A DNA stretch of 64,000 nucleotides, from contig CAYIDJ010000002.1 of NCBI GenBank assembly GCA_964362215.1, positions 911 through 64,910 of the forward strand, in the 5' to 3' direction. The notes beneath the pieces were generated by a model that was not told where the DNA came from, made no database searches, and worked only from the letters and a program-made list of their open reading frames with translations. A program made the translations under genes and the position numbers. The stretch is from an uncultured Candidatus Saccharibacteria bacterium (GTDB lineage Bacteria > Patescibacteriota > Minisyncoccia > UBA6257 > XYB1-36-10). The first letter of the stretch is position 1, and each line of letters opens with the position of its first letter. This document shows, in pieces, positions 1,756 through 58,351 of the stretch.

Positions 1756-1893
1756 TTTCCTTCTCCTTTTTTTTGGAATTTTTTCCAATATTTAGTTATC
1801 TAAGAACCGGTCAGATTATAGGATATTTTTATTGTAATGTCAACAATGCGGGCTATCGGCTGATAATTTGCAGTTGGTAGAAAAATAGAGGAA

Positions 1894-2000
1894 ACTGGAT
1901 TCCCGCTTTCACGGGAATGACAGAGGAGGGGACTGGATTCCAGCTTCCGCTGGAATAACAAGGCGGAAGGGATGGATTCCAGCTTTCGCTGGGACCCGCC
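1894..2000. repeat. tandem array of three about 38-bp hairpin units (GGACTGGATTCCCGCTTTC-GCGGGAATGACA family)
   Basis: Units at 1894-1922, 1931-1960 and 1971-2000 each form an 8-bp stem ATTCCNGC/GCNGGAAT with flanks GGACTGG and TGACA. Related copies occur at 4418, 12485 and 39885. Confidence 0.7.
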
Positions 2001-2041
2001 CAACGGAGTTGTTCGGGCAAGTGACAGAAAAGGAGAGGGAG

Positions 2042-2070
2042 TTGACAAGGGTTTTTATATGGTATATAAT
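2042..2070 (+). promoter_or_regulatory. sigma70-like promoter (TTGACA-17-TATAAT) for the 2132 gene
   Basis: TTGACA at 2042-2047, 17-nt spacer, TATAAT at 2065-2070. Confidence 0.55.
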
Positions 2071-2131
2071 ACGGCGGAATTAATATTCAGTCGGTTAGGG
2101 CGTTTATTTATTAGGTTTTAAGCAATAATTT

Positions 2132-3808
2132 ATGATTAATAAGTTTGTAGGTTTGTTAGTGGTCGGTTTGGTTATTACCAGCTTGTTTTCGGGTGCGCCG
2201 GTGGTCGTGGCGGCAAGCGTAACTCCAGCAAACGGCGGGCAGAATCTGCCAACTGGGTCGGGATTTGTGAATTTAACTAATGTGTTTATCAGTGAGGTAG
2301 TGGGAGGGGAGATAAGCGTGGGAACGCACATAATTAACCTTCCGGCCGGATGGGAATTTGATACCAGCGGCACGGTTGAGATTGTCACTACAAGTTCGCT
2401 TATGGTGATTTCTCCTACTTCACTTAATCCGGGAGCGAGTTCTTTTTCGTTTCAGATACAGTCGCCGTCAGTGCCGGCTTCTGATTTAGCGATTAAATCA
2501 ATGCGGGTGCGGCCGACGGGAACGGCGGGTGGCAATATCACTCACAGCGGCGCGGCGATTACCGGAATTGTAAATGGCGCGACGAGTTTGGGAGCGTTGT
2601 CAGTGGCGGGTGGTGGCGGAGGCGGTTCATCTTCCGTGGGGCCGCTTTTGGCGGCTGGTGGCGGGGGAGCGGGAGCGCCGATTGTTCCGCCCAGTGGTAT
2701 TTCCGTTCGTATTAACAACGGAGCGGAGACGACTAACAGCCGAACGGTAACGCTTTATATCGTAGCCACTTATGCCGGTGATATGATAATCGCTAACGAC
2801 GAGCCGATTTTTGAAAATTCCGTGCTGGAGTCGTTCGCGGAGCGTAAGACGTGGACATTGTCGGCGGGGGCGGGCGAGAAGCGAGTGCACATAAAGTTCC
2901 GCAGTCCGACCGGCGTTTATTCGGAAGCGGTTTCCGATTCTATCCGGTATGAGCCGGCCGCGGTGGCAGCGCCGATGCCGGAACCGGGTTCGCCCGACGT
3001 CAATATTGATGGAACGATTGATATTGGGGACGCGGCGACGGTTATCACCGGCTGGAACAATGCGGGAGCGACTGACATCAACCGTGATGGAGTTACGGAC
3101 ATAAAAGATTTCAACGCGGTGATGGCGGGGTGGGATGGGGCGGTTCCTTCCACTCGCAGCGGCGCGGCGGACACGATTTTCAGATTGTCTCCGATTATTA
3201 CCGAGGCACGCACTGGCGGGCAGGTGGCGGTGACAATTGAAGTTCTGCCGGGTTCAAACCCAATTTATACTACCCGTTTAGTGCTTAACTATTCGGCGAA
3301 TATGCTGGAGGTGGCACAAGTGAGTTATGAAAACGGATGGATGCCTTTATCTATCGGAATTAACGCGTCGGACGCGGCCGGCACATTGGTGCGGACGGCT
3401 GGGTTCCCTCGCGGATTGGATTCAAACCGGAATTTTATGAGAGTGGTGTTTAATGCCAAGCGGCCGGGGACGGCAACGGTGTCCGTTAACAGCGGCTCGG
3501 TGGCAATGGATGGACGCGGCTTAAATGAGTTTGGCGGCGGATTGGCGCAGACGGCGATAACGATTACCGGTACGCCAGTGGCGGCCGCGACGATAGTGAC
3601 GCCGGCGGCGAGAGTAACTTCGGTAGCGCCGACGGCGGGAACTGAAGCAGAAGCGCCGGTAACAGAGACAACGGAACAGCCGGTACAGCCGTTAGGAGCT
3701 TTGGTGGTGGATTTGTTTAGCAATTTGTCACCGGCGGCGTACGCGGCGGCGATAGCGATTTTGGCGGCGGCCGGATATGGGGCCAGACGGTGGTTTATGC
3801 CGTTCTAA
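2132..3808 (+). CDS. secreted Gly-rich cell-surface protein with dockerin-like Ca-binding repeats and C-terminal hydrophobic anchor
   Basis: Signal peptide MINKFVGLLVVGLVITSLFSGAPVVVAAS. Poly-Gly linkers. DVNIDGTIDIGDAATVITGW and DINRDGVTDIKDFNAVMAGW match dockerin type-I repeat logic (DxNxDGxIDxxD). C-terminal AAYAAAIAILAAAGYGA transmembrane-like tail. Confidence 0.6.
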   Translation: MINKFVGLLVVGLVITSLFSGAPVVVAASVTPANGGQNLPTGSGFVNLTNVFISEVVGGEISVGTHIINLPAGWEFDTSGTVEIVTTSSLMVISPTSLNPGASSFSFQIQSPSVPASDLAIKSMRVRPTGTAGGNITHSGAAITGIVNGATSLGALSVAGGGGGGSSSVGPLLAAGGGGAGAPIVPPSGISVRINNGAETTNSRTVTLYIVATYAGDMIIANDEPIFENSVLESFAERKTWTLSAGAGEKRVHIKFRSPTGVYSEAVSDSIRYEPAAVAAPMPEPGSPDVNIDGTIDIGDAATVITGWNNAGATDINRDGVTDIKDFNAVMAGWDGAVPSTRSGAADTIFRLSPIITEARTGGQVAVTIEVLPGSNPIYTTRLVLNYSANMLEVAQVSYENGWMPLSIGINASDAAGTLVRTAGFPRGLDSNRNFMRVVFNAKRPGTATVSVNSGSVAMDGRGLNEFGGGLAQTAITITGTPVAAATIVTPAARVTSVAPTAGTEAEAPVTETTEQPVQPLGALVVDLFSNLSPAAYAAAIAILAAAGYGARRWFMPF

Positions 3809-3966
3809 CTAGATAATAGATGGAAGATATAAGATAGAGAGAGGAGAGATTCTTCACTGCGTTCAGAATGACAGAAAGGGAGCGGAAATATTATAGATAA
3901 GATAAAAATCCGTCTCGACCTCAAGTCGGGGCGGATTTTTGTTGACGGGGAGGGGAAGGAGGATTT

Positions 3967-4410
3967 ATGATGAAGGCAGAAATTTTAAAATCATATTTTG
4001 AAGGTAAAGGAGGAAATAGCGCCATGATTTCATTTAATAAGGCAAAACGACAAAGTACGTGGCTGGATATAATTTTAAAGGAGCCGGAGTATTTTGGTGA
4101 ACCATATGTTTTAGAATTTGAGAAAGAAGTGGTGCTGGATGTGACGAATTTTGAAGTTCTAAACGATGTTTTAGGCGACCGGATGAATGAAGGAGTAAGA
4201 AAGTTGGTGGTTGATATGGGAAACGTCAGCCGTATGACCGCTAATGCTTTAGCGGTACTAACCGCCAAGAACGAAGAGTTTAAAGCGAAGGGCGGGGAGA
4301 TAGTGCTGGCTAACCTAACTTTGTTAATGGAGAATTTTTTAAGAGAATTGCACTTTGATACGATTTTCCGTATTTTTGGAAGTGTGGAGGAGGCGATGGA
4401 CTTATTTTAA
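3967..4410 (+). CDS. STAS-domain protein (anti-sigma-factor antagonist SpoIIAA-like)
   Basis: Strong GGAGGA Shine-Dalgarno sequence. Segment VVDMGNVSRMTANALAVLTAKNEEFKAKGGEIVLANL...FDTIFRIFGSVEEA is typical STAS architecture. Confidence 0.55.
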   Translation: MMKAEILKSYFEGKGGNSAMISFNKAKRQSTWLDIILKEPEYFGEPYVLEFEKEVVLDVTNFEVLNDVLGDRMNEGVRKLVVDMGNVSRMTANALAVLTAKNEEFKAKGGEIVLANLTLLMENFLRELHFDTIFRIFGSVEEAMDLF

Positions 4411-4417
4411 TGAAGAG

Positions 4418-4448
4418 GACTGGATTCCTGCTTTCGCAGGAATGACAC
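4418..4448. repeat. single copy of GGACTGGATTCC..GGAATGACA hairpin repeat immediately after STAS gene stop
   Basis: gactggattcctgctttcgcaggaatgacac. Confidence 0.65.
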
Positions 4449-4562
4449 GGAAGTAAAAGATAAATCCCGGAGATGATATCAAAGGGATTTTTTATTTTGG
4501 AAGCGAAGCCTGCCTACGCTCTGTCGAGCTTCGGCGGGGCGAAGTGGTATAATGAAAAGCAA

Positions 4563-5426
4563 ATGAGGAAGATATTTTTTATCGCAGTGATGGTGGTGGC
4601 GGTGGGGGGAGTTTGGTGGTGGGGACAACAAAACGGTATTTCCTGGCGAGAACTGCCGGCAGAGTTTATGGCGCTGGTTGAGGATTCTTTTAAGCGGGAA
4701 GTGGAGTGGAAGACGACGACGATAGGAGAGAATCGGAAGTTTACGGCGGATGTGCCGGAGAATTGGGAGGCGACGATTAGCGGGAACGGGCTTACCCTTT
4801 CCAGTCCGGAGTTAGGAGAGACAATAAAGATTGAAACAGCTTCAACAACGGTGACGTTGCCGGTGGAGGAAGTCAGCCGGAGCGAGACGGTTCAGGTTGG
4901 GGGGCAGGAAGCGGTGGTGGTGCGGGGAGAAGGAGAAGAACCGGATACGGCTTATGTGCCTTTGCCGGACGGGACGCAAGTAGTGGTGACGGGCAAGGGG
5001 GAAGTATTTGAAGAAACATATAAGCGGATTGACCCGACACCGAACGAGCCGGACTGGAAACTGTTGGGAGTGGAGGCGCCGGAGACGGAGAGAATCGCGG
5101 CGGTACTGGACGAGTATTTGCCGAAGTTCGCGCCGGAACCGGCGGCGGCCGGAAAAAAATGGCAGAGCGAGGCGGTAGTCAGAATTATCGGACAACCGTT
5201 CGCTTATGTGGGATATGGGGATGGGGAAAGTAAACAGACGCTGATTATTAATTTGATGACGCCAGCAGGAGAGGTACCGGCGACTATCGGCTATTACAAA
5301 ACGGAAATAAAACAACAAGGAGGAAAGTGGGTGGTGATGGGTTCGCCGGACAAGGCAATTGCGATTTTGCCGGAGGCGGCGGCGGGATACGCGAAGGGGA
5401 GTGGCGGCACGTGGGAGAAGAAGTAG
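4563..5426 (+). CDS. hypothetical membrane-anchored protein
   Basis: ORF with N-terminal transmembrane helix (KIFFIAVMVVAVGGVWWWG). ATG at 4563 chosen over the longer track start. No recognisable domain. Confidence 0.45.
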   Translation: MRKIFFIAVMVVAVGGVWWWGQQNGISWRELPAEFMALVEDSFKREVEWKTTTIGENRKFTADVPENWEATISGNGLTLSSPELGETIKIETASTTVTLPVEEVSRSETVQVGGQEAVVVRGEGEEPDTAYVPLPDGTQVVVTGKGEVFEETYKRIDPTPNEPDWKLLGVEAPETERIAAVLDEYLPKFAPEPAAAGKKWQSEAVVRIIGQPFAYVGYGDGESKQTLIINLMTPAGEVPATIGYYKTEIKQQGGKWVVMGSPDKAIAILPEAAAGYAKGSGGTWEKK

Positions 5427-5431
5427 GTTTT

Positions 5432-5536
5432 AGTAAAAGATAATTGTTTGTGAGACACGTGTATTTTCTGGCTGGAAAATCACTCTGATTCGCACCGCCG
5501 TGCTCCGCGCGGTCTCACAAACAATTATCTTTTACT
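5432..5536. repeat. long palindromic element, family B (perfect about 24-bp stems flanking conserved core CTCTGATTCGCACCGCCGTGCTCCGCGCGGTC)
   Basis: aaaagataattgtttgtgagac ... gtctcacaaacaattatctttt is perfectly self-complementary. The loop is nearly identical to the copy at 42665-42776. Confidence 0.7.
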
Positions 5537-5606
5537 GTACACTTGGCTCTGGCGAATGTTTTTGTCGATTGGATTGTGCCGAGGGGAAAGAAATTATATT
5601 TAAGAT

Positions 5607-5656
5607 AGCCTGCCTAAATTTTTACATGAGTAAAAAATTAGGCAGGCTTTAATTTT
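5607..5656 (+). terminator. hairpin terminator-like element (AGCCTGCCTAAATTTTT...AAAATTAGGCAGGCTTT)
   Basis: 17-bp stem followed by T-rich tract. Same GCCYGCC..GGCRGGC hairpin type as at 22835, 35080 and 58190. Confidence 0.4.
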
Positions 5657-7891: not shown

Positions 7892-9820
7892 ATGAAAAGC
7901 AAACGGTTGTTGATAGTAATGCTGGTTATGGTAGCGGTGATAACACAATCAGCAGAGGAAGGGATTACGAGATTTGACCAGTGGCGTGCCAATATACAGT
8001 TGGGGGATATATTGTATGACCCTTACGGTTTTGGGATCGGAGATGATACAAAAACTGGCCATATAGGGATTTACGTTGGCAGTTTGGAATATGGGGGACG
8101 GAGATGGGACAATCAGGTGATTGAGTCGACATTAACGGGTGATGGTGTTTATTTTATTGGAATTGAGACGTGGGATCCGTGGCATGGCCAGCAGGAAGCC
8201 TGGATTTTGCGGCCGCTGGAAGTTGATCAGTCGCGGAAGGCGGCGGCAGTTAATTTTGTCAAGCGGCAAATAGGAAAACCGTACAACTTGAATTTTTTTA
8301 GGGCGCCGCGCACTTCAGTGAATAATGAAAGTTGGTATTGCAGTGAATTAGTGTGGGCGGCTTATTGGAATGAGGGCAGAGGCGTTAATCTGGTGACGGT
8401 AGACGTACCGGAACTTTTCAGATTAAATTCTCGTGTTTCGCCGCTCGATATTTACAACAGTAATCGGATTGAAGCGATTAGTTATTACGGTCCGCAGTAT
8501 CCTTTGTTGCCAGGAGCGTTACGGGTGCATAATGTTTCCCTACAGCGCAATTACGGTTCTATAGCCGAAGCGCTGATTGAGGCGGCAACCGGCAATATCA
8601 TTTTTCTTGACGCTGGCAGTTATCTAGAAAGAGTGGTGGTGGAGACGCCGGGGATAAAATTTTATGCGCGGCCAACTGGTTTCAAAACCTATGCCGATAT
8701 TTATAAGAGGAACAGTGTTTGGGACACGATTCAGCAGATTTTTAGGATAGATAAAGACACTTTGACGGTTAAAGCGCCGGGGGCGAGTTTTTATGGAATA
8801 GTATTGCGCGGTTCGGCACACGGCGAGGATGACGGTGGCTTATTTGTGGACACGGGCGCCAATCGGACGACGGCGCGCAATTGTATATCTTTTGGAAACT
8901 CGGTGGGGTTGAAAATACGGTCTTCGTCAAATAATTATTTTTCCAGATTTGTCATGGATAACAATGAGCGTGGTTTCGGATGGGTTGCTTCTTTCGGTAA
9001 TACATTAATGATGTCGTCGGTTGCGGGGAGTAGTGATATCTCTGTTTTTACCGAGGATACCAGCTCCTGCCCGTCGGTGGTTTTAGCGGAACAGACCAGT
9101 AGCGGAACGTGGTTATCTAAAGCCAGAGTTTTCCGCGATAATTTGGCAAGCGAGAAGGCAATTCGACTCTACTACGAATTAGGACCGGGGCTGACGGAGT
9201 TTGTGCCACACGCCGAATGGGCATTGCCTACGGCGCGACGTTTAGCAGAACTGACGTTGAATTTAGACAGCCGCGACGGTTTGAAAAAAGTTTTAGTGGA
9301 GCGGCGGGATGTGGAATTGGCAAAGTTGATAGTAGCCGATTTGAAACGAGCGCCAGTTGAACAGGAAATATTATCTGAACTTAAGGAAATAATAGATAAA
9401 CTGGAAGATGGAGTAGGCCATTCAATATATTCTTGGCTTGAGGAGAATGGTTTATTGAGAGATGGGAACGGCGAGACGGAAAAGCTAAACGAGCGTCCGG
9501 TTTCTTATATTTATCTCAATGACTTCGGCGGAAATGACTATATTGGTCAGTCGGATTATTCGGATGGATTGATTGTGTGGAATTCGCCGCGGGAGTTGAA
9601 TTACATTTTTTCTGGACGCCGGCAGCGCGGTTATCTGGGAAATTATTGGGGGGGAGATGTTTCTTACTGGACAGACAGGAATGGAAACGGCGTGGCGGAT
9701 ACGGTGTTCAGCGACGACCGTTATCCTTTAGTAGCACCAGTTGCCAATTATTTTCCTCAATCTTCAAATAAGGATGTGGAGAATACGGAAACTGCTGTGA
9801 TGGGATGGGATATATATTAA
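7892..9820 (+). CDS. secreted multidomain protein with N-terminal permuted papain-like (NlpC/P60 superfamily, YiiX/C92-like) hydrolase domain and beta-helix-like middle region
   Basis: Shine-Dalgarno sequence GGAGAAGGG. Signal peptide. GDILYD...GHIGIYVG...ESWYCSELVWAAYW is the His-before-Cys permuted arrangement. Repetitive N/G/S-rich strands (NRTTARNCISFGNSVGLKIRSSSNNYF). Confidence 0.45.
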   Translation: MKSKRLLIVMLVMVAVITQSAEEGITRFDQWRANIQLGDILYDPYGFGIGDDTKTGHIGIYVGSLEYGGRRWDNQVIESTLTGDGVYFIGIETWDPWHGQQEAWILRPLEVDQSRKAAAVNFVKRQIGKPYNLNFFRAPRTSVNNESWYCSELVWAAYWNEGRGVNLVTVDVPELFRLNSRVSPLDIYNSNRIEAISYYGPQYPLLPGALRVHNVSLQRNYGSIAEALIEAATGNIIFLDAGSYLERVVVETPGIKFYARPTGFKTYADIYKRNSVWDTIQQIFRIDKDTLTVKAPGASFYGIVLRGSAHGEDDGGLFVDTGANRTTARNCISFGNSVGLKIRSSSNNYFSRFVMDNNERGFGWVASFGNTLMMSSVAGSSDISVFTEDTSSCPSVVLAEQTSSGTWLSKARVFRDNLASEKAIRLYYELGPGLTEFVPHAEWALPTARRLAELTLNLDSRDGLKKVLVERRDVELAKLIVADLKRAPVEQEILSELKEIIDKLEDGVGHSIYSWLEENGLLRDGNGETEKLNERPVSYIYLNDFGGNDYIGQSDYSDGLIVWNSPRELNYIFSGRRQRGYLGNYWGGDVSYWTDRNGNGVADTVFSDDRYPLVAPVANYFPQSSNKDVENTETAVMGWDIY

Positions 9821-12450: not shown

Positions 12451-12484
12451 AGTACGTAAAATAAAAAGCAAATAGCGAATCTCG

Positions 12485-12542
12485 GGACTGGATTCCTCTG
12501 CCATTCGTCAGTTGGCGGAGGCGGAGGCGGACGGGAATGACA
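12485..12542. repeat. GGACTGGATTCC...GGGAATGACA hairpin repeat copy carrying an internal CAGTTGGCGGAGGCGGA insertion
   Basis: ggactggattcctctgccattcgtcagttggcggaggcggaggcggacgggaatgaca. Confidence 0.6.
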
Positions 12543-12576
12543 AGGCGGGAAGGGAATGATAGGATAAAATTTAAAT

Positions 12577-16439: not shown

Positions 16440-16575
16440 GGGGAAGTTTTGATATATACTTGTATAGAAGTCGCTAATGGCAATGGGGAGAATAAACCAC
16501 TCTTTTCTTTCCTACTTTAGGGGAGAGGTTGGATAATAAGGTAGTCCCGAATTACTCGGGACTTTTATTATATAA
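16440..16575. repeat. shared 3' module of composite repeats (TAGAAGTCGCYAATGG..GGGGAGAATA ... GGGAGAGGTTGGAT..GTAGYC + hairpin + T-run)
   Basis: Motif blocks recur at 22761-22875, 34991-35125, 42826-42880 and 63276-63340. Ends in GTCCCGAATTACTCGGGAC hairpin plus TTTTATT. Confidence 0.6.
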
Positions 16576-21259: not shown

Positions 21260-21269
21260 TTATATTTAT

Positions 21270-21328
21270 TTTCCCCATTACCCATAGCTCCGCTATTCGC
21301 TTAACGTGAACAAATAGGAATTTGTTTA
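21270..21328. repeat. fragment of family D repeat (CCCCATTACC..GCTCCGCTATTCGCTTAA) fused to GAACAAATAGGAATTTGTT palindrome
   Basis: Matches the 5' part of copies at 22590, 25987 and 34826. Confidence 0.55.
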
Positions 21329-22585: not shown

Positions 22586-22878
22586 GTGATATTCTCCCCA
22601 TTACCATCGGCTCCGCTATTCGCTTAAAGCGAGTAATATTCACTCCCCTCTAATTTGGCTTATAAAACGGCTGGTTCCCGTTCCTCCCAAGGGGATTTTC
22701 CGACCAGCCGTTTTATAAAAGCCAAATTCTTCGTTGCGTTCATTTATCGCTAATTAAGCTCATAGAAGTCGCCAATGGTAATAGGGAGAATAATTTACCC
22801 TTTTTATTTGGAGAGGGGGTTGGACTTAAGGTAGCCCGCCAAAATTTTTGCTTGCGCAAAAACTTAGGCGGGCTTTTG
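22586..22878. repeat. composite long palindromic element, family D plus shared 3' module and GCCCGCC hairpin
   Basis: attctccccattaccat...atggtaatagggagaat outer inverted repeat. Inner inverted repeat ttggcttataaaacggctggt/accagccgttttataaaagccaa. 3' end GGGAGAGGGGGTTGGACTTAAGGTAGCCCGCC-hairpin-TTTT. Confidence 0.7.
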
Positions 22879-22880
22879 TT

Positions 22881-22918
22881 TTATCCACTTATAATACATA
22901 TGTATTATAAGTGGATAT
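22881..22918. repeat. perfect palindrome TTATCCACTTATAATACATATGTATTATAAGTGGATAA (DnaA-box-like half-sites)
   Basis: 38-bp palindrome. Half-site TTATCCACT is one mismatch from the DnaA box TTATCCACA. Related sites at 37771, 46274 and 26081. Confidence 0.6.
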
Positions 22919-24247: not shown

Positions 24248-24778
24248 TCATTGAGCAGCGGAAATTTCTTCTTTTTCAAGAATCGCTGCTATTTTCTTAA
24301 TACAGGCATAGGCCTTGGGAGAGTGGATGCTGGTAAAGCAAAAGATGTTTTTATATTCTTCCACGGTTGAGGCGAATTCCATGGCCTTCTCCAAGGCCTT
24401 TCTTTCCACCTCGCTGCCGCCTGGAGCTTTCCGGCAGATACCCAGACACTCTTTCACGGTTGAGGCGAATTCCATGGCCTTCTCCAAGGCCTTTTTTTTC
24501 ATCTCGCTGCCGCCTGGAGCTTTCTGGCAGATATCCAGACACTCTTCCACGGTTGAGGCGAATTCCATGGCCTTCTCCAAGGCCTTTTTTTCCACCTCGC
24601 TGCCGCCTGGAGCTTTCCGGCAGATACCCAGACACTCTTCCACGGTTGAGGCGGAGAGAAGTTTCTTCATTATGTCGGTTTCCTCCGGTAATGGCACATC
24701 GAGGGCTGAACAAACTTGGTCTCTTTTGTCTTGACCAAGAATCAGGCACAACCTATCAACTAACACTGAATTGTCCAT
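24248..24778 (-). CDS. hypothetical protein with four 31-aa tandem repeats (ALEKAMEFASTVEECLGICRKAPGGSEVEKK)
   Basis: Minus-strand ORF with GAAGGGAG Shine-Dalgarno sequence and TTGACA-17-ATATAT promoter upstream. Plus-strand ORFs through the same repeats are judged frame artefacts. Confidence 0.55.
   Translation of the reverse strand: MDNSVLVDRLCLILGQDKRDQVCSALDVPLPEETDIMKKLLSASTVEECLGICRKAPGGSEVEKKALEKAMEFASTVEECLDICQKAPGGSEMKKKALEKAMEFASTVKECLGICRKAPGGSEVERKALEKAMEFASTVEEYKNIFCFTSIHSPKAYACIKKIAAILEKEEISAAQ
24365..24690. repeat. 93-bp tandem repeat, about 3.5 units (coding)
   Basis: ggttgaggcgaattccatggcc recurs at 24365, 24458, 24551 and 24644. Confidence 0.8.
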
Positions 24779-24835
24779 AACAGAACTCCCTTCACTTTTT
24801 TGGGTTTTAATTAACACACCTTCAGGGTGTGACGC

Positions 24836-25955: not shown

Positions 25956-25986
25956 GGCGGGAGGAAAAAATATAAAGTTCAGGCAA

Positions 25987-26100
25987 TATTCTCCCCATTA
26001 CCACTGGCTCCGCTATTCGCTTAAAGCGGATAATATTCGCTCCAATCCAATTTGGCTTATAAAATGACCGGTTCCCGTTGTTTTATAAGTGGATAGAGTA
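25987..26100. repeat. truncated family D repeat ending in TTTTATAAGTGGATA half-palindrome
   Basis: atattctccccattaccactggctccgctattcgcttaaagcggataatattcgctcc matches copies at 22590 and 34826. Confidence 0.65.
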
Positions 26101-34821: not shown

Positions 34822-35128
34822 TATATATTCCCCCACCACCATTCGCTCCGCTACTCGCTCAAAGCGAATAATATTCGCTCCGTTCTAATTTGGCTTATAA
34901 AATGACTGGTTCCCATTCCTCCCTCGATAGAACCTCGGGATTTTCCGACCAGTCATATTTATAGAAGCCAAATTGTTCATTCCGCTCATTTATCGCTTAT
35001 TAAGCTCGTAGAAGTCGCGAATAATGATGGGGAGAATATAAACTATTCTTCCTGGGGGAGAGGTTGGATGAGAATGTAGCCCGCCAAAATTTTTGCTTAC
35101 GCAAAAACTTAGGCGGGCTTTTGTTTAT
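34822..35128. repeat. composite long palindromic element, family D plus 3' module plus GCCCGCC hairpin
   Basis: Same block order as 22586-22878, with divergent outer stems. Ends GGGAGAGGTTGGATGAGAATGTAGCCCGCCAAAATTTTTGCTTACGCAAAAACTTAGGCGGGCTTTT. Confidence 0.7.
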
Positions 35129-37183: not shown

Positions 37184-37768
37184 ATGTTATTCACAAGAAG
37201 GAGTTTTGAGCCGCGAGCAACGGTGAGGTTGGCGAGGGAATTGCTGGGAAAGGTTTTAGTTCGCCGGATAGGACGGAAAGAAATACGGGCGGTAATTACG
37301 GAGACGGAGGCGTATCACGGGCTGAAAGACAAAGCCAGCCACGCGGCGAGAGGAAAGACGAAGCGGAACGCGCCGATGTGGGGAGCGGCCGGACACTGGT
37401 ATGTTTATTTTGTTTACGGAAATCACTGGATGCTTAACTTGGTGACGGGACCGGAAGAATACCCGGCCGCGATTTTAATAAGGGGAATTTCAAAAATTAA
37501 AAATCAAAAATCAAAATTTAGGAGGTCTGCTTCGCAGACTTTAATTAAAAATAAAGACGGTGTAGTCAGTGGGCCGGGGAGGGTGGCGAAGTTTTTGAAA
37601 ATTGACGGGAGTTTGAGCGGGCGGCCGGCAAGCCGGAAGACGGGACTATGGATTGAGGACGGAGGAGAAAAAATAAAGCCGTCGCGGATTAAGGCAGCGG
37701 CGAGAGTGGGGGTCAATTACGCGGGGAAGGAGTGGGCAGGGAAGAAGTGGAGGTTTAAATTACTTTAA
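37184..37768 (+). CDS. mpg: DNA-3-methyladenine glycosylase (Mpg/AAG family)
   Basis: ITETEAYHGLKDKASHAARGKTKRNAPMWGAAGHWYVYFVYGNHWMLNLVTG matches Mpg family blocks. Confidence 0.85.
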   Translation: MLFTRRSFEPRATVRLARELLGKVLVRRIGRKEIRAVITETEAYHGLKDKASHAARGKTKRNAPMWGAAGHWYVYFVYGNHWMLNLVTGPEEYPAAILIRGISKIKNQKSKFRRSASQTLIKNKDGVVSGPGRVAKFLKIDGSLSGRPASRKTGLWIEDGGEKIKPSRIKAAARVGVNYAGKEWAGKKWRFKLL

Positions 37769-37770
37769 TA

Positions 37771-37856
37771 TTATCCACTTATAAAACATATGTTTTATAA
37801 GTGGATAGGTTGGGTGTGGTTACTATAATTTTTCCACGGTCGTTGGAAAATTATAG
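37771..37856. repeat. pair of perfect palindromes immediately after mpg stop: TTATCCACTTATAAAACATATGTTTTATAAGTGGATA and CTATAATTTTTCCACGGTCGTTGGAAAATTATAG
   Basis: Both recur after the rnhA stop at 46231-46309, with the spacer between them conserved in layout. Confidence 0.65.
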
Positions 37857-39345: not shown

Positions 39346-40908
39346 TTAGATATGGAAGACGGGGGCGGTGGGGGGAATAGAGTCGGTTTGAGGGGGGAGA
39401 AGGTAGAAGATGTTTTTGGTTTGGCGGTTTTCGGGTGACCAGGTATCGGTTAAGAATATTACGGTTTGGGCGGGCATGGGGAGGCCGCGGACGTCAACGC
39501 CGCCGGAGTCCACAATGACGTATTTTGGAATGGCGGAGGGAAGGGAGTTTATTTGAGCGGCGAGGTCAACATAGTTTTGGTTGAAGGCGCCGGCGGTTTC
39601 AGGATTTTGTCCCCATTTAAGGAAGTAGGTGTCGTAAGTATTTATAGTAATGGTGGCGAGGAAAATTATGGCAAGAGCAAAGAGAAAACGGCGCTGGCGG
39701 GGGAGAATGGTTTTAAGATGTTCATAAACATAGATACCGCCTAAAGCGGAGAGAATAAAGACGGGCGGAATCATCAGAATAGCGCGGAGGGCGTGGGGAA
39801 GGCCTTCGTTAGAAATTACTACCGGTAAGGCAGAGATAAATAACCAAGAAAATAAAATAATCGGAAGTAACAGCGATGAATTATGGACTGGATTCCCGCT
39901 TTCGCGGGAATGACGGAAGAGTGTATAAAGTGAAATGGGGATACCGATTAAGAACAGTATACCGACGGGCCAGTAGAGCTGGGGCGCGCCAGCAAGGTTG
40001 TGGCGCCAGTTGCCGTCGCCCGCAAAATTAAACATAGCGGCGGTTTTGGAGGTATTTATAACCAGGTCTTTAAGAGGAGAAGCGGAAGAAAAGACAGATA
40101 TTTGGGAGGTACGGCCGAGGAAATCGGCGGGGTTATTTAGGAAATACAGGCCGAGCGGGGCGGCGGTGATGACAGCGCCAATGGTGAAGGCGGCGGCGGC
40201 TTGCCAGAATTGTTTGGAGCGCCAGAAGAAAGGAATAAAGACAAGAAAGAGCAGGGGCATAGCGCGGTAGGCGATGTAAGAATATAAACCGAGGCCAAAT
40301 ATTATCCCACTAAGGACGGCGGGGATGATGAATAGCCGCCACCCGGCAGGTTTCGGCCGCGCCTGTTGGCGAGCGGGGGAAATGGATTTAAGAAAAAAAT
40401 AAAGAGCCCAGATGAGAAAAGCAGGAGCCATAATGGCGCGGAAGCCGACGCGGGAGAAGTTGATGTGCCAAAAGCTCACGGCGAGGAAAAAGGAGGAGAG
40501 AAGAGCAGTAACCTCGCCGCGAGAAATCCTAAATCCTATCCGCCAGCTGGCGGACGAAACTCTAAATAATTCTTTGGTTAGGAAAAATAGTCCCAGAACG
40601 GTTAAGATACCGAAGATAGCGGAAGGGAAGCGGAGCGCCCAGGGTTGGGTGGGGGAGATGCCGGAGTTTTCCAAAGAGCCGAGGAAGGCGGCCTGGATGT
40701 TTATGAAAAGTCCTTCGCGGCCGTTGTTTTCGGGGTAGAAAACTTTGTATCCGCCAGCTGGCGGACTTGTGTGAAGCGCTTCCAGAGCGTTGTTGCCATT
40801 CATGGCCTCGTCCGGATAGAGGCCGGGAGGGGTAGAGGAAAGATTATAAAGCCGGAAGAAGGAGGCAATAGCAATTATAAGAATGAGCCAAACCCAAGTT
40901 TTTTTCAT
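39346..40908 (-). CDS. GT-C family glycosyltransferase (ArnT/PMT-like) membrane protein, with in-frame hairpin-repeat insertion
   Basis: N-terminal GLYPDEAMNGNNA motif plus multiple transmembrane helices. Residues HSRESGNPV are encoded by the GGACTGGATTCCCGC...GGGAATGAC repeat. Confidence 0.6.
   Translation of the reverse strand: MKKTWVWLILIIAIASFFRLYNLSSTPPGLYPDEAMNGNNALEALHTSPPAGGYKVFYPENNGREGLFINIQAAFLGSLENSGISPTQPWALRFPSAIFGILTVLGLFFLTKELFRVSSASWRIGFRISRGEVTALLSSFFLAVSFWHINFSRVGFRAIMAPAFLIWALYFFLKSISPARQQARPKPAGWRLFIIPAVLSGIIFGLGLYSYIAYRAMPLLFLVFIPFFWRSKQFWQAAAAFTIGAVITAAPLGLYFLNNPADFLGRTSQISVFSSASPLKDLVINTSKTAAMFNFAGDGNWRHNLAGAPQLYWPVGILFLIGIPISLYTLFRHSRESGNPVHNSSLLLPIILFSWLFISALPVVISNEGLPHALRAILMIPPVFILSALGGIYVYEHLKTILPRQRRFLFALAIIFLATITINTYDTYFLKWGQNPETAGAFNQNYVDLAAQINSLPSAIPKYVIVDSGGVDVRGLPMPAQTVIFLTDTWSPENRQTKNIFYLLPPQTDSIPPTAPVFHI
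39885..39914. repeat. GGACTGGATTCCCGCTTTCGCGGGAATGAC hairpin repeat copy inside a CDS (in frame)
   Basis: Identical element type to 1894-2000. Translated as HSRESGNPV in both the GT gene and the spurious ORF 1800..2048. Confidence 0.7.
40539..40554. repeat. 16-bp perfect palindrome TCCGCCAGCTGGCGGA (copy 1, intragenic)
   Basis: Shares the 19-bp identical stretch TATCCGCCAGCTGGCGGAC with the copy at 40750. Confidence 0.7.
40750..40765. repeat. 16-bp perfect palindrome TCCGCCAGCTGGCGGA (copy 2, intragenic, different reading frame)
   Basis: Encodes SPPAGG here versus SASWRI at copy 1. Relatives CCAGTTGGCGGAGGCGGA at 31627 and 12515. Confidence 0.7.
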
Positions 40909-42640: not shown

Positions 42641-42780
42641 CAACATACTCTCGCTTAGCGGCAATCAGAAGCCCAGTTTCCTGTTTGTTGGACACGGATA
42701 TTTTTTTGCTAAAAAATTCCTCTGACTCGCACCGCCGTGCTCCGCGCGGTCCAACAAACAGGAAACTGGGCTTCTCTGGC
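42641..42780. repeat. long palindromic element, family B (perfect about 27-bp stems flanking conserved core CTCTGACTCGCACCGCCGTGCTCCGCGCGGTC), with family-C-like 5' lead CAACATACTCTCGCT
   Basis: cagaagcccagtttcctgtttgttggac ... gtccaacaaacaggaaactgggcttctc. Core nearly identical to 5461-5512. Confidence 0.7.
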
Positions 42781-46189: not shown

Positions 46190-46230
46190 AAAGTCATAAA
46201 GTCCATTAAATTTTGTTCTTTTAACACCAA

Positions 46231-46309
46231 CTACAATTTTTCCACGGCCGTGGAAAAATTGTAGTAACTATACCTATCCACTTTCAACACATATGAACTG
46301 AAAGTGGAT
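46231..46309. repeat. pair of palindromes after rnhA stop: CTACAATTTTTCCACGGCCGTGGAAAAATTGTAG and TATCCACTTTCAACACATATGAACTGAAAGTGGATA
   Basis: Same two-palindrome arrangement as 37771-37856. Confidence 0.65.
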
Positions 46310-46534
46310 AAAATTATAATTAACTATACTCTAATAACTTTGTTTCAAGAGTGCGGTGGGGAAAAAATTTCTGACACGGCAAAATAAGGACGGGATTATT
46401 TATTTCTGACTATGGGAGTACCTATAGAGAAATGCTGAGGTTATCCACACTTGACACGAGAAATGAGTATTATATAGTGCGTTTGGTACTTTGTGGGCGT
46501 GAATATTAAAGTTATTACTGAAAGGAGAGGTGGA

Positions 46535-46729
46535 ATGGTAGATGGAGAGAAAATAAAAGAGGCCGCGAGTGCGGCTAAAAACCAAAATGAGTTGCACCGT
46601 AATTTCAAACGACTGGGAATACTGGTAGCTAAACTTACGGTGCGCGGCAATGAGTGGAATGCTTTGATTCTTCTTCCTGGGGAAAGGAAGAAAAGATTAT
46701 TGGCTACAATGAGCGGGAGGTGGCTTTAA
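46535..46729 (+). CDS. small hypothetical protein (64 aa)
   Basis: AAAGGAGAGG Shine-Dalgarno sequence. Upstream TTGACA-like promoter. Terminator follows. Confidence 0.45.
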   Translation: MVDGEKIKEAASAAKNQNELHRNFKRLGILVAKLTVRGNEWNALILLPGERKKRLLATMSGRWL

Positions 46730-46743
46730 GGTATTGGCGCTGT

Positions 46744-46780
46744 AGCCCCCTTTGTCGAAAGACGAGGGGGTTTTGTTTTT
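46744..46780 (+). terminator. rho-independent terminator
   Basis: GCCCCCT...AGGGGG stem plus TTTTGTTTTTT. Confidence 0.6.
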
Positions 46781-46793
46781 TACCACCATTGAC

Positions 46794-46822
46794 TTGACAG
46801 ATTAGCCGTTATCTGCTATACT
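46794..46822 (+). promoter_or_regulatory. sigma70-like promoter TTGACA-17-TATACT
   Basis: ttgacagattagccgttatctgctatact, followed by an about 100-nt structured leader before the 46927 gene. Confidence 0.6.
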
Positions 46823-46926
46823 AAAACATCAATAGTTGAGAAATCGTCTTTTAACTAAAAGAGCGGTCTTTAGCTGTTGCGAGGATTTGCTCTTTTACAA
46901 AACCTTTTTAAAGGAGGAGAAATAAA

Positions 46927-47187
46927 ATGAAAGAGAAAGACTATACTTGTAATTGTCCCGGGTATGCGTATGAGAAATGCGCTCCTGGGGCAAGGGGGGG
47001 GTCGTACCAGGCCTGCGTGAACTGCGGTAAAGCAGTTCGACCAAGGAATGACGACTCCTATCGGTATTTTTATGCGGAGACGGAAAATTGGTGTTCATGT
47101 GCCAACCCGTCCCCATCTCCAAAAAAAGAATACCATCAGGTATGGTGCAATTCGAGACGAGATGAGTTTCCCGAATTGCATAAGTGA
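46927..47187 (+). CDS. small Cys-rich protein (8 Cys; CxC, CxxC, CxC motifs), hypothetical metal-binding
   Basis: Strong AAAGGAGGAG Shine-Dalgarno sequence, own promoter and terminator. Confidence 0.5.
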   Translation: MKEKDYTCNCPGYAYEKCAPGARGGSYQACVNCGKAVRPRNDDSYRYFYAETENWCSCANPSPSPKKEYHQVWCNSRRDEFPELHK

Positions 47188-47203
47188 AGAAGAAACTCAC
47201 ACC

Positions 47204-47240
47204 AAGACCCAGTGAGTATAAATAAGGGTCTTTTTTTTCC
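47204..47240 (+). terminator. rho-independent terminator
   Basis: AAGACCC-agtgagtataaataa-GGGTCTTTTTTTT. Confidence 0.65.
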
Positions 47241-47529
47241 AAAAAAACTAAAAAACTTCCTTATTAAATTTTAACCAGCTACGCAATATTTTACCTAACG
47301 TTTAAGAATAAAAGAAGCCCCGCGCCGATTAAGAGTATGAAACTTATTCTGTCCTTAAAGATTGTTAAATGGAACTAACTCTATTATATCACAGAACTAA
47401 GGCGCGAGATTTGGGAAAATTCTGAGCTGAGGCATTTTCCTTTTATTCTTTGTTAGGCGAGAGTGAGCGAAAGCGCAGCGTCCCCGTAGCGTTTTCTTTC
47501 AAATTATTTTTTGCGATCGAGTACATGTA

Positions 47530-47559
47530 CTTGACAAACTACTGACTTTTAGGGTAAAA
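47530..47559 (+). promoter_or_regulatory. sigma70-like promoter for rnpB (TTGACA-17-TAAAAT)
   Basis: ttgacaaactactgacttttagggtaaaat. Confidence 0.6.
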
Positions 47560-47565
47560 TATAAG

Positions 47566-48063
47566 TAGCCAGTTGTAAGACAGCTACTGGATGCCTTAAA
47601 AAGTATCTAGAGGAAAGTCCGGACACCAGCCAGTGCTATGCGCTGGCTATGGATAGTCGCTAACGGCGACCGGGGGAAACTCCAGGGAAAGTGCAACAGA
47701 AAATATACCGCCGAACACTCAATTTATTGAGTGTTCGGTAAGGTTGAAATCGTGCGGTAAGAGCGCACGCGTTCTGGCCGTGAGGTTAGAATGTGGCAAA
47801 CCCTATCCGGTGCAAGGTCGTATTCCAGTGCTTCGCATTGGGAATATCAATAACTAAGAAACAATAGTACAAAAACATTCTCTTTATAGTTTTAATTTTG
47901 TGGTTTGATGTTTGTTTGGAATTTGTATCTTGGAATTTGGTGCTTCCAATGCGGAGCATTGGTCTGTGCCGCTTGACTCCGGCGCGCAAGCGCCGAAGCA
48001 GATAAATTGCTGTCATTCGCCGATGAGGCGAAACAGAATCCGGCTTATAAGCAACTGGCTAAA
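47566..48063 (+). ncRNA. rnpB: RNase P RNA (bacterial type, with unusual about 90-nt AT-rich insertion near 47845-47935)
   Basis: P4 strands GAGGAAAGTCCGGAC and ACAGAATCCGGCTTAT. Conserved GGTAAGGTTGAAATCGTGCGGTAAGAGCGCAC block. P1 pairing TAGCCAGTTG/CAACTGGCTA and P2 GACAGC/GCTGTC. Ends are approximate. Confidence 0.85.
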
Positions 48064-54279: not shown

Positions 54280-54966
54280 ATGAAACTCCGCCCTGTTGCA
54301 CTTAAAACCGTGGACGGGCGCCGGATAGTCGGCTTGTTCGGTGCTGTGCCGGAGCCGCGCGGGTGGGTTTTATTTTTGCATATGATGCTGGCGACGAAAG
54401 AATCGTGGGGAGAACTGGCGGAGCGGATGCGTGAGGAGGGGATAGCGACATTGGCGATAGACCTGCGCGGGCATGGAGAGTCGGAGGGCGGACCGGAGGG
54501 ATATAAGCAATTTTCGGATGAAGAGCACCAGGCAAGCTGGTATGATGTGAAAGCGGCGATTGAATTTTTAAGGAGTGAAGGAGCGGAGAAGAAAAAAGTA
54601 CTTTTAGTCGGAGCGTCTATCGGAGCAAATTTGGCTTTGCGGTATTTGGCGGAAAAGGAAGAGATAAAGGCGGCGGTATTTCTGTCACCGGGATTAAACT
54701 ATTATGGAGTTAACGGAGAGGAGGCGGCGGGAAAATTACACAGCGGACAAAGGGTTCTTTTGGTAGCGGTGCGTGACGATGAGCGAAGAAGTGGGGGAAG
54801 GGCGGCGGATATGACACAGACGCTTTATGAGGAGGTGCCGATTGACGTAGATAAAAAAATTATAATTTATGAGCGAGGCGGGCATGGAACAGATATGCTA
54901 AAAACGGAGGAGTTGCCCAATTTGACGGAGGCAATCATTACTTTTACGCGGGAGAATAAAATATGA
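54280..54966 (+). CDS. alpha/beta hydrolase (dienelactone hydrolase-like)
   Basis: HG..E oxyanion region. Nucleophile elbow GASIGANLAL. C-terminal GGHG. Confidence 0.65.
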   Translation: MKLRPVALKTVDGRRIVGLFGAVPEPRGWVLFLHMMLATKESWGELAERMREEGIATLAIDLRGHGESEGGPEGYKQFSDEEHQASWYDVKAAIEFLRSEGAEKKKVLLVGASIGANLALRYLAEKEEIKAAVFLSPGLNYYGVNGEEAAGKLHSGQRVLLVAVRDDERRSGGRAADMTQTLYEEVPIDVDKKIIIYERGGHGTDMLKTEELPNLTEAIITFTRENKI

Positions 54967-55448
54967 TAAAGCAGTTTGTGAAATTTGGGCTGGTAGGAGC
55001 GTTTAACACGTTGCTGGATATAATGGTTTTGAACGCGCTGATGTGGACTTTCGGCATTACGGCAGGCATCGGGTTTTCCATTTTTAAAACGATATCTTTT
55101 ACGGCGGCGGTGGGGAACAGTTATTGGCTCAATAAATATTGGACTTTTCGGGATCGGAGTCGGAGTGAGGTGGGGCAGATAAGCCAGTTTTTATTGGTTT
55201 CTGTTGTGGGGGCGATAATTAATGTGGGGGTGGCATCTCTTATCGTCAACTGGGTTCAGCCGATAGAGGCACTGATTAGAATGGGAGCGGCAATACTGGC
55301 AATGGCGGGTATAGAGATGCCGGCGGGGCAGATATGGGCAAACGCGGCCACTTTTTTGGCGATTGCGGTGTCAATGATTTGGAACTTTACCGTATACAAG
55401 TTGGTGGTGTTTAAAGAGAATGACGAAGCGCGAATGACGAATGACTAG
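54963..55448 (+). CDS. GtrA-family membrane protein
   Basis: MIKQFVKFGLVGAFNTLLDIMVLN canonical GtrA N-terminus. 4 transmembrane helices. Confidence 0.8.
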   Translation: MIKQFVKFGLVGAFNTLLDIMVLNALMWTFGITAGIGFSIFKTISFTAAVGNSYWLNKYWTFRDRSRSEVGQISQFLLVSVVGAIINVGVASLIVNWVQPIEALIRMGAAILAMAGIEMPAGQIWANAATFLAIAVSMIWNFTVYKLVVFKENDEARMTND

Positions 55449-57800: not shown

Positions 57801-58351
57801 CGAGTAAATAAGGAAAGGACAGAAAAGTCATTCTGACGTTACGCCCGAACATTGGAATGACACAAGGAAGTTTGAACTTTGGGGTGGTTTGTGGGAAAAT
57901 AGGCGATAGTAGAGATTTATAAAAGAATAAAGAAAGAGAGGATTTGGCGATGGTAGGTTTAGTTAATCCAGCAGGTCCGCCTGTTTTGGGGGTTTTTAAG
58001 GTGACGTATCCAAATCCAATAAAGGAGATACCGAGCGGGATTAAGCGGTTAGAGGGTCCTTTTGCGCCGGAGAGTTCGCCTTCACAAATTATTATCGCTG
58101 ACACAAGGCAGTTTCGGCGTTGGCCGGTGCTTCATCCGTACAAGGGGCATAATTTAGATGTCCTCGCGTGAAATAAATAAGGATAACGCCGCCCGCCTAA
58201 ATTTTTTCCTAAGCAAAAATTTAGGCGGGTTTTTGTTTATTTATGTATTGCCGAATTCAGGCAGTTTTTGTGATAAAATAAATTCCAATGAAAATAATGG
58301 CGAGAATATAAAAACTTTAACTCGGGCGGGGTTTGTATTATTATTTAGTTA

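Follow-up and report, generated by a model that had tools for sequence, protein, structure and literature searches.

Introduction

The Neisseria Transformation Sequence (NTS) is a 28-nt element encompassing dRS3, and it was described together with the degenerate Ssn-related motif (SRM) and the nuclease SsnA (Chenal et al., Nat Commun 2025, PMC11893778). Here, we examined a short hairpin repeat in a 64,000-nt stretch of contig CAYIDJ010000002.1 from an uncultured Candidatus Saccharibacteria bacterium (hereafter the window) and identified it as a member of this NTS/SRM family, one copy of which is read in frame inside a glycosyltransferase family 39 (GT39) gene. SsnA is a 94-aa single-domain GIY-YIG protein (cd10448), which binds the NTS as single-stranded DNA (ssDNA) only and on one strand only, and does not bind its RNA form (PMC11893778). 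Its cut falls a few nucleotides upstream (5') of the element; the trinucleotide 5' of the palindrome is the most important part for cutting, and the C just 3' of the palindrome is the most important part for binding (PMC11893778). An NTS is often present on each side of an ssn gene, and NTS clusters are located next to envelope genes (PMC11893778). In N. meningitidis, 2% of the NTS are inside genes, and NTS-flanked DNA transforms less well when SsnA is present (PMC11893778). The same study itself likens NTS-ssn to REP-RAYT, and its main text does not mention the Patescibacteria, the group of ultra-small genomes to which the window belongs. Another relevant precedent is that of the Rickettsia palindromic elements (RPE), which are approximately 100–150 bp long and in which a single frame encodes a conserved peptide (reviewed in PMC10969869).

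Results and Discussion

Identification of the Repeat as an NTS/SRM Element

The 30-mer quoted in an initial annotation of the window was confirmed exactly at positions 39885–39914. It gave three matches in the window when up to 3 mismatches were allowed, against 0.00 expected, so that the annotation was right in taking it for a genuine dispersed hairpin repeat and not for a coincidence. The stem pattern ATTCCCGC-N4-GCGGGAAT (up to 2 mismatches) was found four times against 0.02 expected, and the 5' flank CTGGATTCC five times against 0.42 expected, on the plus strand in 5/5. When compared with the NTS consensus CGTCATTCCCGCGMAVGCGGGAATCYRG, the minus strand at 39888–39915 matched at 28/28 positions with 0 mismatches, while 2 and 3 mismatches were found on the minus strand at 1895–1922 and 4420–4447, respectively; the chance expectation was 0.00, and published NTS matching tolerates 1 mismatch. 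The degenerate SRM pattern HGTCWYN(0-2)YYVSBRHN(0-5)WNVSBRGN(0-2)RNCYNB matched the window twice, whereas 100 first-order Markov simulations gave 0.13 matches on average.

In their alignment, the intact window copies have a GTC head and a C adjoining the 3' end of the palindrome, and thus the same oriented flanks as the NTS. The copies also contain the palindrome ATTCCC-N8-GGGAAT of Neisseria dRS3, so the core 20 bp is shared with that element as well. In a 12-copy alignment comprising the window and other Patescibacteria, 97.9% of the cells were paired, and stem position 6 occurred as three pair types (C:G, A:T, and T:A). At one unconstrained stem pair examined over 315 copies from 240 loci, Watson–Crick pairing was found in 309/315 (C:G 225, G:C 60, T:A 15, A:T 9). 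Such retention of pairing at a free position, together with the compensatory changes, indicates that the hairpin is under selection as a structure. The window repeat was hence identified as a member of the NTS/SRM family, i.e., a new instance of a known element. The label "REP-like" given to it initially was apt in denoting a dispersed hairpin repeat, but the repeat is not a generic one, since it matches the full NTS consensus and that family has Ssn as its partner.

Copies of the Element in the Window

The copies recognized in the window are as follows, where z denotes the folding of each sequence as ssDNA relative to its shuffles.

39885..39915, minus strand: in-gene NTS/SRM hairpin, intact (CGTCATTCCCGCGAAAGCGGGAATCCAGTCC on the minus strand), in frame as RHSRESGNPV (GT39 residues 332–341); 28/28 consensus, SRM pattern, and fold (8-bp stem, −9.0 kcal/mol as ssDNA, z −4.65)
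1890..1922, minus strand: array unit 1, intact (TGTCATTCCCGTGAAAGCGGGAATCCAG); on the NTS strand, the pair closing the loop is a G.T wobble; 2 mismatches; z −4.36
1930..1960, minus strand: array unit 2, intact; stem ATTCCAGC/GCTGGAAT with a compensatory A:T pair, head GTC changed to GTT; z −4.30
1970..1996, minus strand: array unit 3, decayed; the original 3' arm is lost and reads GCTGGGAC; z −1.2, no better than shuffles
4417..4447, minus strand: single NTS copy; stem ATTCCTGC/GCAGGAAT with a compensatory change from C:G to T:A; 3 mismatches; z −4.45
12484..12542, minus strand: split NTS copy; 5' half GGGACTGGATTCC, 3' half GGGAATGACA; z 0.0, no stable hairpin
12552..12561: additional 3' half-site GGGAATGATA adjoining the split copy
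3846..3874, minus strand: degenerate SRM-like relic (GAGATTCTTCACTGCGTTCAGAATGACAG on the plus strand); weak fold, z −0.88
57827..57862, no strand assigned: possible relic, GTCATTC ... GGAATGACA, with a pair of head motifs in facing orientation; not significant alone; z 0.03

The four intact copies, each with an 8-bp stem, gave z values of −4.3 to −4.65, and the decayed, split, and relic copies folded no better than shuffles. The array consists of three head-to-tail units with a 38-nt period and 10-nt purine-rich linkers, and was detected by Tandem Repeats Finder at 1894–1992 (period 38, 2.6 copies). The copy at 4417–4447 is located 7 nt past the stop codon of a STAS gene and 26 nt ahead of the next open reading frame (ORF), and the two halves at 12484–12542 are kept apart by approximately 36 nt containing (GGCGGA)x3. 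The tandem triplet upstream of the promoter at 2132, the single copy after the STAS gene, and the copy with an internal insertion, all of which had been noted initially, were thus found, though only units 1 and 2 of the triplet are intact. The recurring GAATGACA tails at 3869 and 57851 also exist, but they are weak relics with no significant hairpin.

The cleavable NTS strand was the C-rich minus strand for all window copies; this orientation bias is not significant with n = 4 independent sites. No association between NTS orientation and local GC skew was detected across single-orientation loci (53/105). In arrays of the Neisseria intergenic mosaic elements (NIME), repeat-sequence (RS) blocks of 50–150 bp are each bounded by dRS3. 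The window array resembles them in its intergenic clustering and differs in the lack of such blocks, in its 38-nt period and 10-nt linkers, and in that there is no phage or IS110-type recombinase nearby in the window. Separately, the NTS tail motif GAATGAC occurs three times close together at 55418–55445, at the 3' end of a GtrA-like gene (54963–55448), where it encodes the last residues KENDEARMTND of the protein; these motifs may be remnants of SRM halves.

Distribution of the Element and Its Association with Ssn

An exact scan was performed with the 27-mer pattern CTGGATTCCNGCNNNNGCNGGAATGAC, in which one stem pair was left free, using one genome per species. The pattern was found in at least 120 loci of this species-level collection, distributed over many phyla, and in at least 120 contigs of a viral collection. 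Among the matches listed are Neisseria, many other Proteobacteria, Dehalococcoidia, Nitrospirota, Planctomycetota, Bacteroidota, and Gemmatimonadota, as well as Paceibacteria, Parcubacteria, Uhrbacteria, Saccharibacteria, Daviesbacteria, and one Nanoarchaeota metagenome-assembled genome (MAG).

A motif scan of the fetched loci identified a 94-aa GIY-YIG ORF (PF01541) that directly adjoins an NTS on a Methylotenera contig. Among the relatives of this protein, Y6, Y17, and E64 are invariant, which are the residues mutated in SsnA. Searches with profile hidden Markov models (HMMs) gave five further ssn-type genes in viral loci, with inverted NTS copies wherever both sides were visible. An NTS was located within approximately 50 nt of each of the six 94-aa-type GIY-YIG genes found in the fetched loci. 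The Ssn family comprised 14,505 clusters (50% identity) at E ≤ 0.001 in a library of 1.84 billion proteins. Peptides derived from the NTS were fused to the ends of 15 of the 150 best Ssn representatives, indicating that these gene calls ran into the flanking hairpins.

Such a cassette was also found in the Patescibacteria. A 24.8-kb contig of a MAG annotated as Ca. Saccharimonadales (DATIJS010000015.1, locus L330) carries ssn at 8001–8291 between def and fmt, flanked by TGTCATTCCCGCGTAGGCGGGAATCCAG at 7968–7995 and an inverted copy at 8344–8371, with an additional variant hairpin GTCATCCCCATGCAAATGGGGATCCAG at 8301–8327. An NTS-ssn-NTS cassette hence exists in this group, and its hairpin is the same as that of the window. 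The encoded Ssn shares 68% identity with the query P0302. Since those close relatives of P0302 that are named come from Desulfosarcina, a transfer of Ssn between phyla is suggested. A small GIY-YIG gene beside a GT39 homologue on an unclassified metagenome contig (L296, 835–1236) was considered as another ssn and was rejected, as it has YhbQ/UPF0213-like motifs without NTS flanks; its match to the Ssn profile was weak (E 3.7e-12).

The gene beside the copies bears on whether the repeat could belong to another class, such as REP/BIME elements with a RAYT (an IS200/IS605-like Y1 transposase), a miniature inverted-repeat transposable element (MITE), or a degenerate CRISPR-like array. A short, dispersed, and clustered palindrome with a gene-flanking layout does resemble REP-RAYT, in which hairpins are likewise recognized as ssDNA and the partner gene is flanked by inverted copies. 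However, the NTS partner is of the GIY-YIG and not the HUH-Y1 fold, transposition activity is not shown for the NTS, the head of the repeat is GTC-ATTCC with no GTAG, and Pfam gave neither Y1 nor any other transposase in the window. A MITE would be longer than this element, which also lacks a target-site duplication. A CRISPR array contains unique spacers of approximately 26–72 nt between its repeats, a leader, and cas genes. The array of the window has 10-nt linkers and 2.6 units, and no cas domain was found in Pfam scans of the window ORFs, so a CRISPR array was rejected; the triplet, which had been said to mimic a mini-array, is one only in the sense of a head-to-tail NTS cluster. Membership of any of these other classes is consequently very improbable.

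The Copy Inside the GT39 Gene

The gene that contains the perfect copy is as follows.

39346..40908, minus strand: host gene, GT39/PMT_2-type GT-C glycosyltransferase, intact, 520 aa (homologues, alignment, AlphaFold2, and Foldseek)

A total of 4084 homologues were found for its product. The best 120 of them are overwhelmingly from Patescibacteria where named, are mostly glycosyltransferases of family 39, and in most cases contain PF13231 (PMT_2) with or without PF02366, though no Pfam or NCBIfam model scored for the host protein itself. In an alignment of 36 sequences, all invariant columns are conserved in the host protein, including D33 and E34 of the acidic motif in the first loop. The AlphaFold model constructed from this alignment (pLDDT 89.6, pTM 0.91) matched AglB/STT3 oligosaccharyltransferases, Pmt4, and ArnT in Foldseek. 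Judging from the alignment and the model, the protein is a GT-C glycosyltransferase, and its gene looks functional. In this model, HSRESGNPV (residues 333–341) forms the end of the helix 313–336 and a short connection to the helix 344–364, over which the pLDDT falls to 76–79; the placement of one copy in frame in a loop between helices of an intact GT-C enzyme, as annotated initially, is in agreement with this. Judged by the conserved loops on either side and by the positive-inside rule, the connection is probably cytoplasmic. The repeat reads identically in an independent ENA assembly of this groundwater well, which shows that it is not an assembly artefact. All other assemblies containing the neighbouring genes likewise derive from this Hainich well and show 100% identity, and thus do not inform on copy-number variation.

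The initial annotation had described the hairpin as inserted in frame, leaving to be checked whether the 9–10 residues are an insertion relative to the orthologues. The spacing between G322 and W355 is 32 residues in the window protein; in the family, its median is 29.5 and it varies from 17 to 96, and the stretch is hypervariable. With a spacing so near the median, a net gain of approximately 10 residues is not demonstrable, and the repeat constitutes the loop rather than adding clearly extra residues. The annotation had also held that orthologues with the same residues and no nucleotide repeat would speak for coincidence; HSRESGNP is absent from the best 120 of the 4084 homologues. The only one of these 120 with a repeat-derived peptide is the closest homologue, P0001 (72% identity by BLASTP, 75.5% amino acid identity over aligned codons), in which the peptide is VIPAKAEIQ, read in another frame. 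In the DNA of its gene (L001), the conserved (L/I)F codons at this loop run directly into GTCATTCCCGCAAAGGCGGAAATCCAG, and the hairpin is then followed by a different, unrelated repeat. The hairpin is identical at 24/27 nt between the window gene and L001, and the remainder of the loop is unalignable; nucleotide identity between the two genes is 75.8% gene-wide and 59.6% at third positions.

On comparison of the two sequences, what the orthologues share is the DNA and not the peptide. An ancestral insertion that was kept at the DNA level through a change of frame and two insertions at the same spot would fit equally with this observation. The element is read without a stop codon in five of its six frames. 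No match was obtained when metagenomes were scanned for an NTS ahead of the conserved PVVISNEG motif, and a protein-guided scan for copies in the same loop retrieved only the L001 sequence again (L250), together with one independent case in another loop. These data leave next to no probability for coincidence or for peptide-level selection of HSRESGNPV-like loop residues. That explanation has an open reading frame in its favour and nothing further, and it was refuted by the orthologue that reads the DNA element in the other frame and by the absence of the peptide among the best homologues; a 28-mer match is also not expected by chance.

In-Frame Copies in Other Genes

Four further loci carry the element in frame, for which the taxonomy of the MAGs is as labelled and unverified. 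In a GT39 homologue with 40% identity (L302, 2709–2774), the next loop contains an inverted NTS pair that encodes SFPRRRES...WIPAFAGMT. A Parcubacteria TGT ORF (L030, 6522–7505) reads through an NTS pair as VIPAKAGIQ...DSRLRGND, though a frameshift breaks this ORF further downstream. An N6_N4 DNA methylase ORF of the Nanoarchaeota MAG (L067, 965–2716) reads through a pair as DSCFRRND...VIPAQAGIQ just before the FxGxG motif, and a Daviesbacteria ORF (L117, 7277–7999) reads VIPAEAGIQ in frame. From these few loci, in-frame NTS copies look recurrent in small genomes. Among 79 other GT39 loci (289 kb), NTS-like copies were found in two, with 5 copies in total. The repeat-derived peptides are not mentioned in the literature searched.

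The in-frame tolerance of such an element had been called uncommon. This agrees with Neisseria, where the in-gene fraction is 2%, and less so with the several cases in a few small-genome loci; in the window, 1/4 of the sites with recognizable copies is in frame in a coding sequence. A similar situation is known for the RPE, which are palindromic repeats in frame in unrelated housekeeping genes of a reduced genome at fold-compatible positions. The window element differs from them in its length of approximately 30 nt, in being read in three different frames across genes and orthologues, and in having a known partner nuclease family.

Repeats of other types also occur in frame. An A-rich repeat AAAATCAAAAATCAAAA at 37485–37518 is read as KIKNQKSKF in the methylpurine-DNA glycosylase gene of the window (37184–37768), and similar peptides (QKSKIKNQN) fill the same GT39 loop in the homologues P0009, P0012, and P0030. 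In the gene of P0033 (L249, 1343–1446 and 1688–1791), a 104-nt GC-rich repeat with internal hairpins is present twice with 94% identity, in two different GT39 loops and in frame in both, giving a peptide of approximately 34 aa.

Setting of the Array and a Possible Role as RNA

The array is bounded by two promoter-like sites.

1815..1843, minus strand: sigma70-like promoter site, perfect 12/12, leftward toward the gene starting at 1755; left bound of the array
2042..2070, plus strand: sigma70-like promoter site, perfect 12/12, for the gene 2132–3808; right bound of the array

Of the flanking genes, one (2132–3808) encodes a 558-aa protein that matches dockerin and cohesin weakly, and the other encodes a large protein for which Pfam gave no match. 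The setting of the array is reminiscent, as a single case, of the published NTS clusters near envelope genes, and the clustering of multiple copies near a surface-protein gene would be a further likeness to the NTS/SRM-Ssn system.

This setting is relevant to a possible role of the hairpin as RNA in its host, where an mRNA stabilizer, a processing site, or translation pausing could keep the in-gene copy. The hairpin is stable as RNA too (−13.6 kcal/mol, z −4.2), the intragenic copy is certainly transcribed, and the copies at 4417 and 12484 probably are, being in short spacers of co-directional genes. The array, however, lies between outward-pointing promoter-like sites, so that its transcription is improbable. 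The copies lack a T-run behind them and no site resembling a terminator was detected in 1500–4600, so a reading as terminator was rejected, and Rfam has no family at the repeat positions. Furthermore, the oriented unpaired flanks are kept in agreement with the requirements of the nuclease, which binds the ssDNA and not the RNA (PMC11893778). An RNA-level role is thus distinctly improbable.

Origin of the Window Copies

We consider it probable that the window copies are NTS/SRM elements that spread with Ssn and subsequently decayed, and that the in-gene copy is tolerated in the GT39 loop. The elements of this family are oriented hairpins of approximately 28–32 nt to which, as ssDNA, small single-domain GIY-YIG nucleases (Ssn, cd10448) bind. 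The window copies would derive from the spread of this Ssn-associated element, as the NTS-ssn-NTS cassettes appear to behave like a mobile unit, and would then have decayed at different rates. One copy may have inserted into, or taken the place of, a loop of the GT39 protein that is short, free of sequence constraint, and probably cytoplasmic, and there it could be tolerated because of its length of approximately 30 nt, its stop-free frames, and the hypervariability of that loop.

Several points weigh against this reading. Neither ssn nor any other GIY-YIG gene was found in the 64-kb window by regular expressions, tblastn, Pfam on approximately 55 ORFs, or three ssn HMMs of rising breadth (built from 120 close homologues, by iteration, and from 150 diverse representatives), and the Pfam scan of these ORFs, which included intergenic ones, found no transposase. 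The 24/27 identity with L001 has a probability of 0.0009 against the third-position background but 0.08 against the gene-wide identity, i.e., it is only marginally above the latter. Several window copies are decayed, which is also compatible with a dead family, and we know of no account in the literature of how NTS copies arise or insert.

The main rival explanation accordingly takes all copies, including the in-gene one, as neutral leftovers of a lineage that formerly hosted NTS-ssn and lost the nuclease. The lack of ssn in the window is what such relics would predict, as are the graded series from intact copies to unit 3, the split copy, and the two relics, and the patchy presence of the NTS in the other GT39 loci. 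On the other hand, one copy is perfect and two more are nearly so, the stem changes in the window are compensatory, and the hairpin is kept in both orthologues though the surrounding loop is unalignable; 64 kb is moreover a small part of the genome. Dead relics are hence unlikely, though far from negligible.

If the elements did spread with Ssn as proposed above, this genome presumably encodes Ssn elsewhere, and the window copies may be cut or bound in vivo. By analogy with Neisseria meningitidis, they could then modulate the recombination of incoming ssDNA. A bolder extension is that Ssn-related hairpins are a recurrent source of in-frame loops in essential proteins of ultra-small genomes, maintained at the DNA level in the Patescibacteria and possibly in DPANN archaea, which we regard as speculative and rather doubtful. 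The RPE phenomenon would thereby be generalized and linked with a defined nuclease of ssDNA. In that case, the hairpin itself would be the reason why the intragenic copy is kept, e.g., to mark envelope-glycosylation genes for Ssn-dependent control of recombination, and this would explain how the hairpin survived a change of reading frame between orthologues.

Other Features of the Window

The window encodes a DprA-like protein and RmuC. It also exhibits an extreme strand asymmetry over 1–64000, with a (G−C)/(G+C) value of +0.32 overall and 0.24–0.39 in every 4-kb bin. The skew is +0.25 to +0.33 across minus-strand genes; since it persists over them, it is not driven by the coding strand. The skew of the L001 contig is −0.31 in gene orientation, and the median absolute skew of the 79 other GT39 loci is 0.05. 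A similar G/C disparity of whole chromosomes has been reported for some Microgenomates (PMC7143001).

Several other repeats were observed in the window. A dispersed intergenic element of up to approximately 200 nt (families D3, D5, D13, and D18) is present in 3–5 copies with 70–88% identity, at 16464–16506, 21267–21313, 22589–22804, 25986–26079, and 34824–35050. A 79-nt element with 14-nt inverted-repeat ends (TGTTTGTGAGAC...GTCTCACAAACA) occurs twice with 84% identity (5445–5523 and 42682–42760). Two more intergenic hairpin families, one terminator-like (GCCCGCC...GGCGGGCTTTTGTTT) and the other a perfect palindrome (TATCCACTTATAA...TTATAAGTGGATA), are located at 5575–5655, 22801–22881, 35046–35126, and 58158–58238, and also at 22873–22917, 37763–37807, and 46266–46310. 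A 93-nt tandem repeat (24357–24653; 3.2 copies, 94% matches) lies within an ORF on the minus strand (24248–24817) that has no Pfam match. Finally, 1.4 kb at 46190–47567, directly upstream of the RNase P RNA gene (47568–48063), contains no convincing ORF and gave no Rfam match below E = 0.3.

Implications

The element class itself is already known (2025, PMC11893778). What is new here is the host group, the perfect consensus match in the Patescibacteria, and the in-frame copy common to orthologues that read it in different frames; the recurrence of NTS copies in proteins of small genomes is a further hint. A puzzling "REP-like" repeat of a candidate-phyla-radiation genome is thereby assigned to a family with a known biochemical partner, and the 28-mer consensus described in Neisseria is found to occur in the Patescibacteria too. 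NTS hairpins can become parts of proteins, as in GT39 (twice, independently), TGT, and a DNA methylase. For annotation, this explains the recurrent peptides VIPAKAGIQ, SFPRKRES, HSRESGNP, DSRFRGND, and WIPAFAGMT in predicted proteins. Organisms of this kind are thought to depend on DNA uptake. Ssn and the NTS may act in such organisms, in which a role in the control of recombination would thus be testable.

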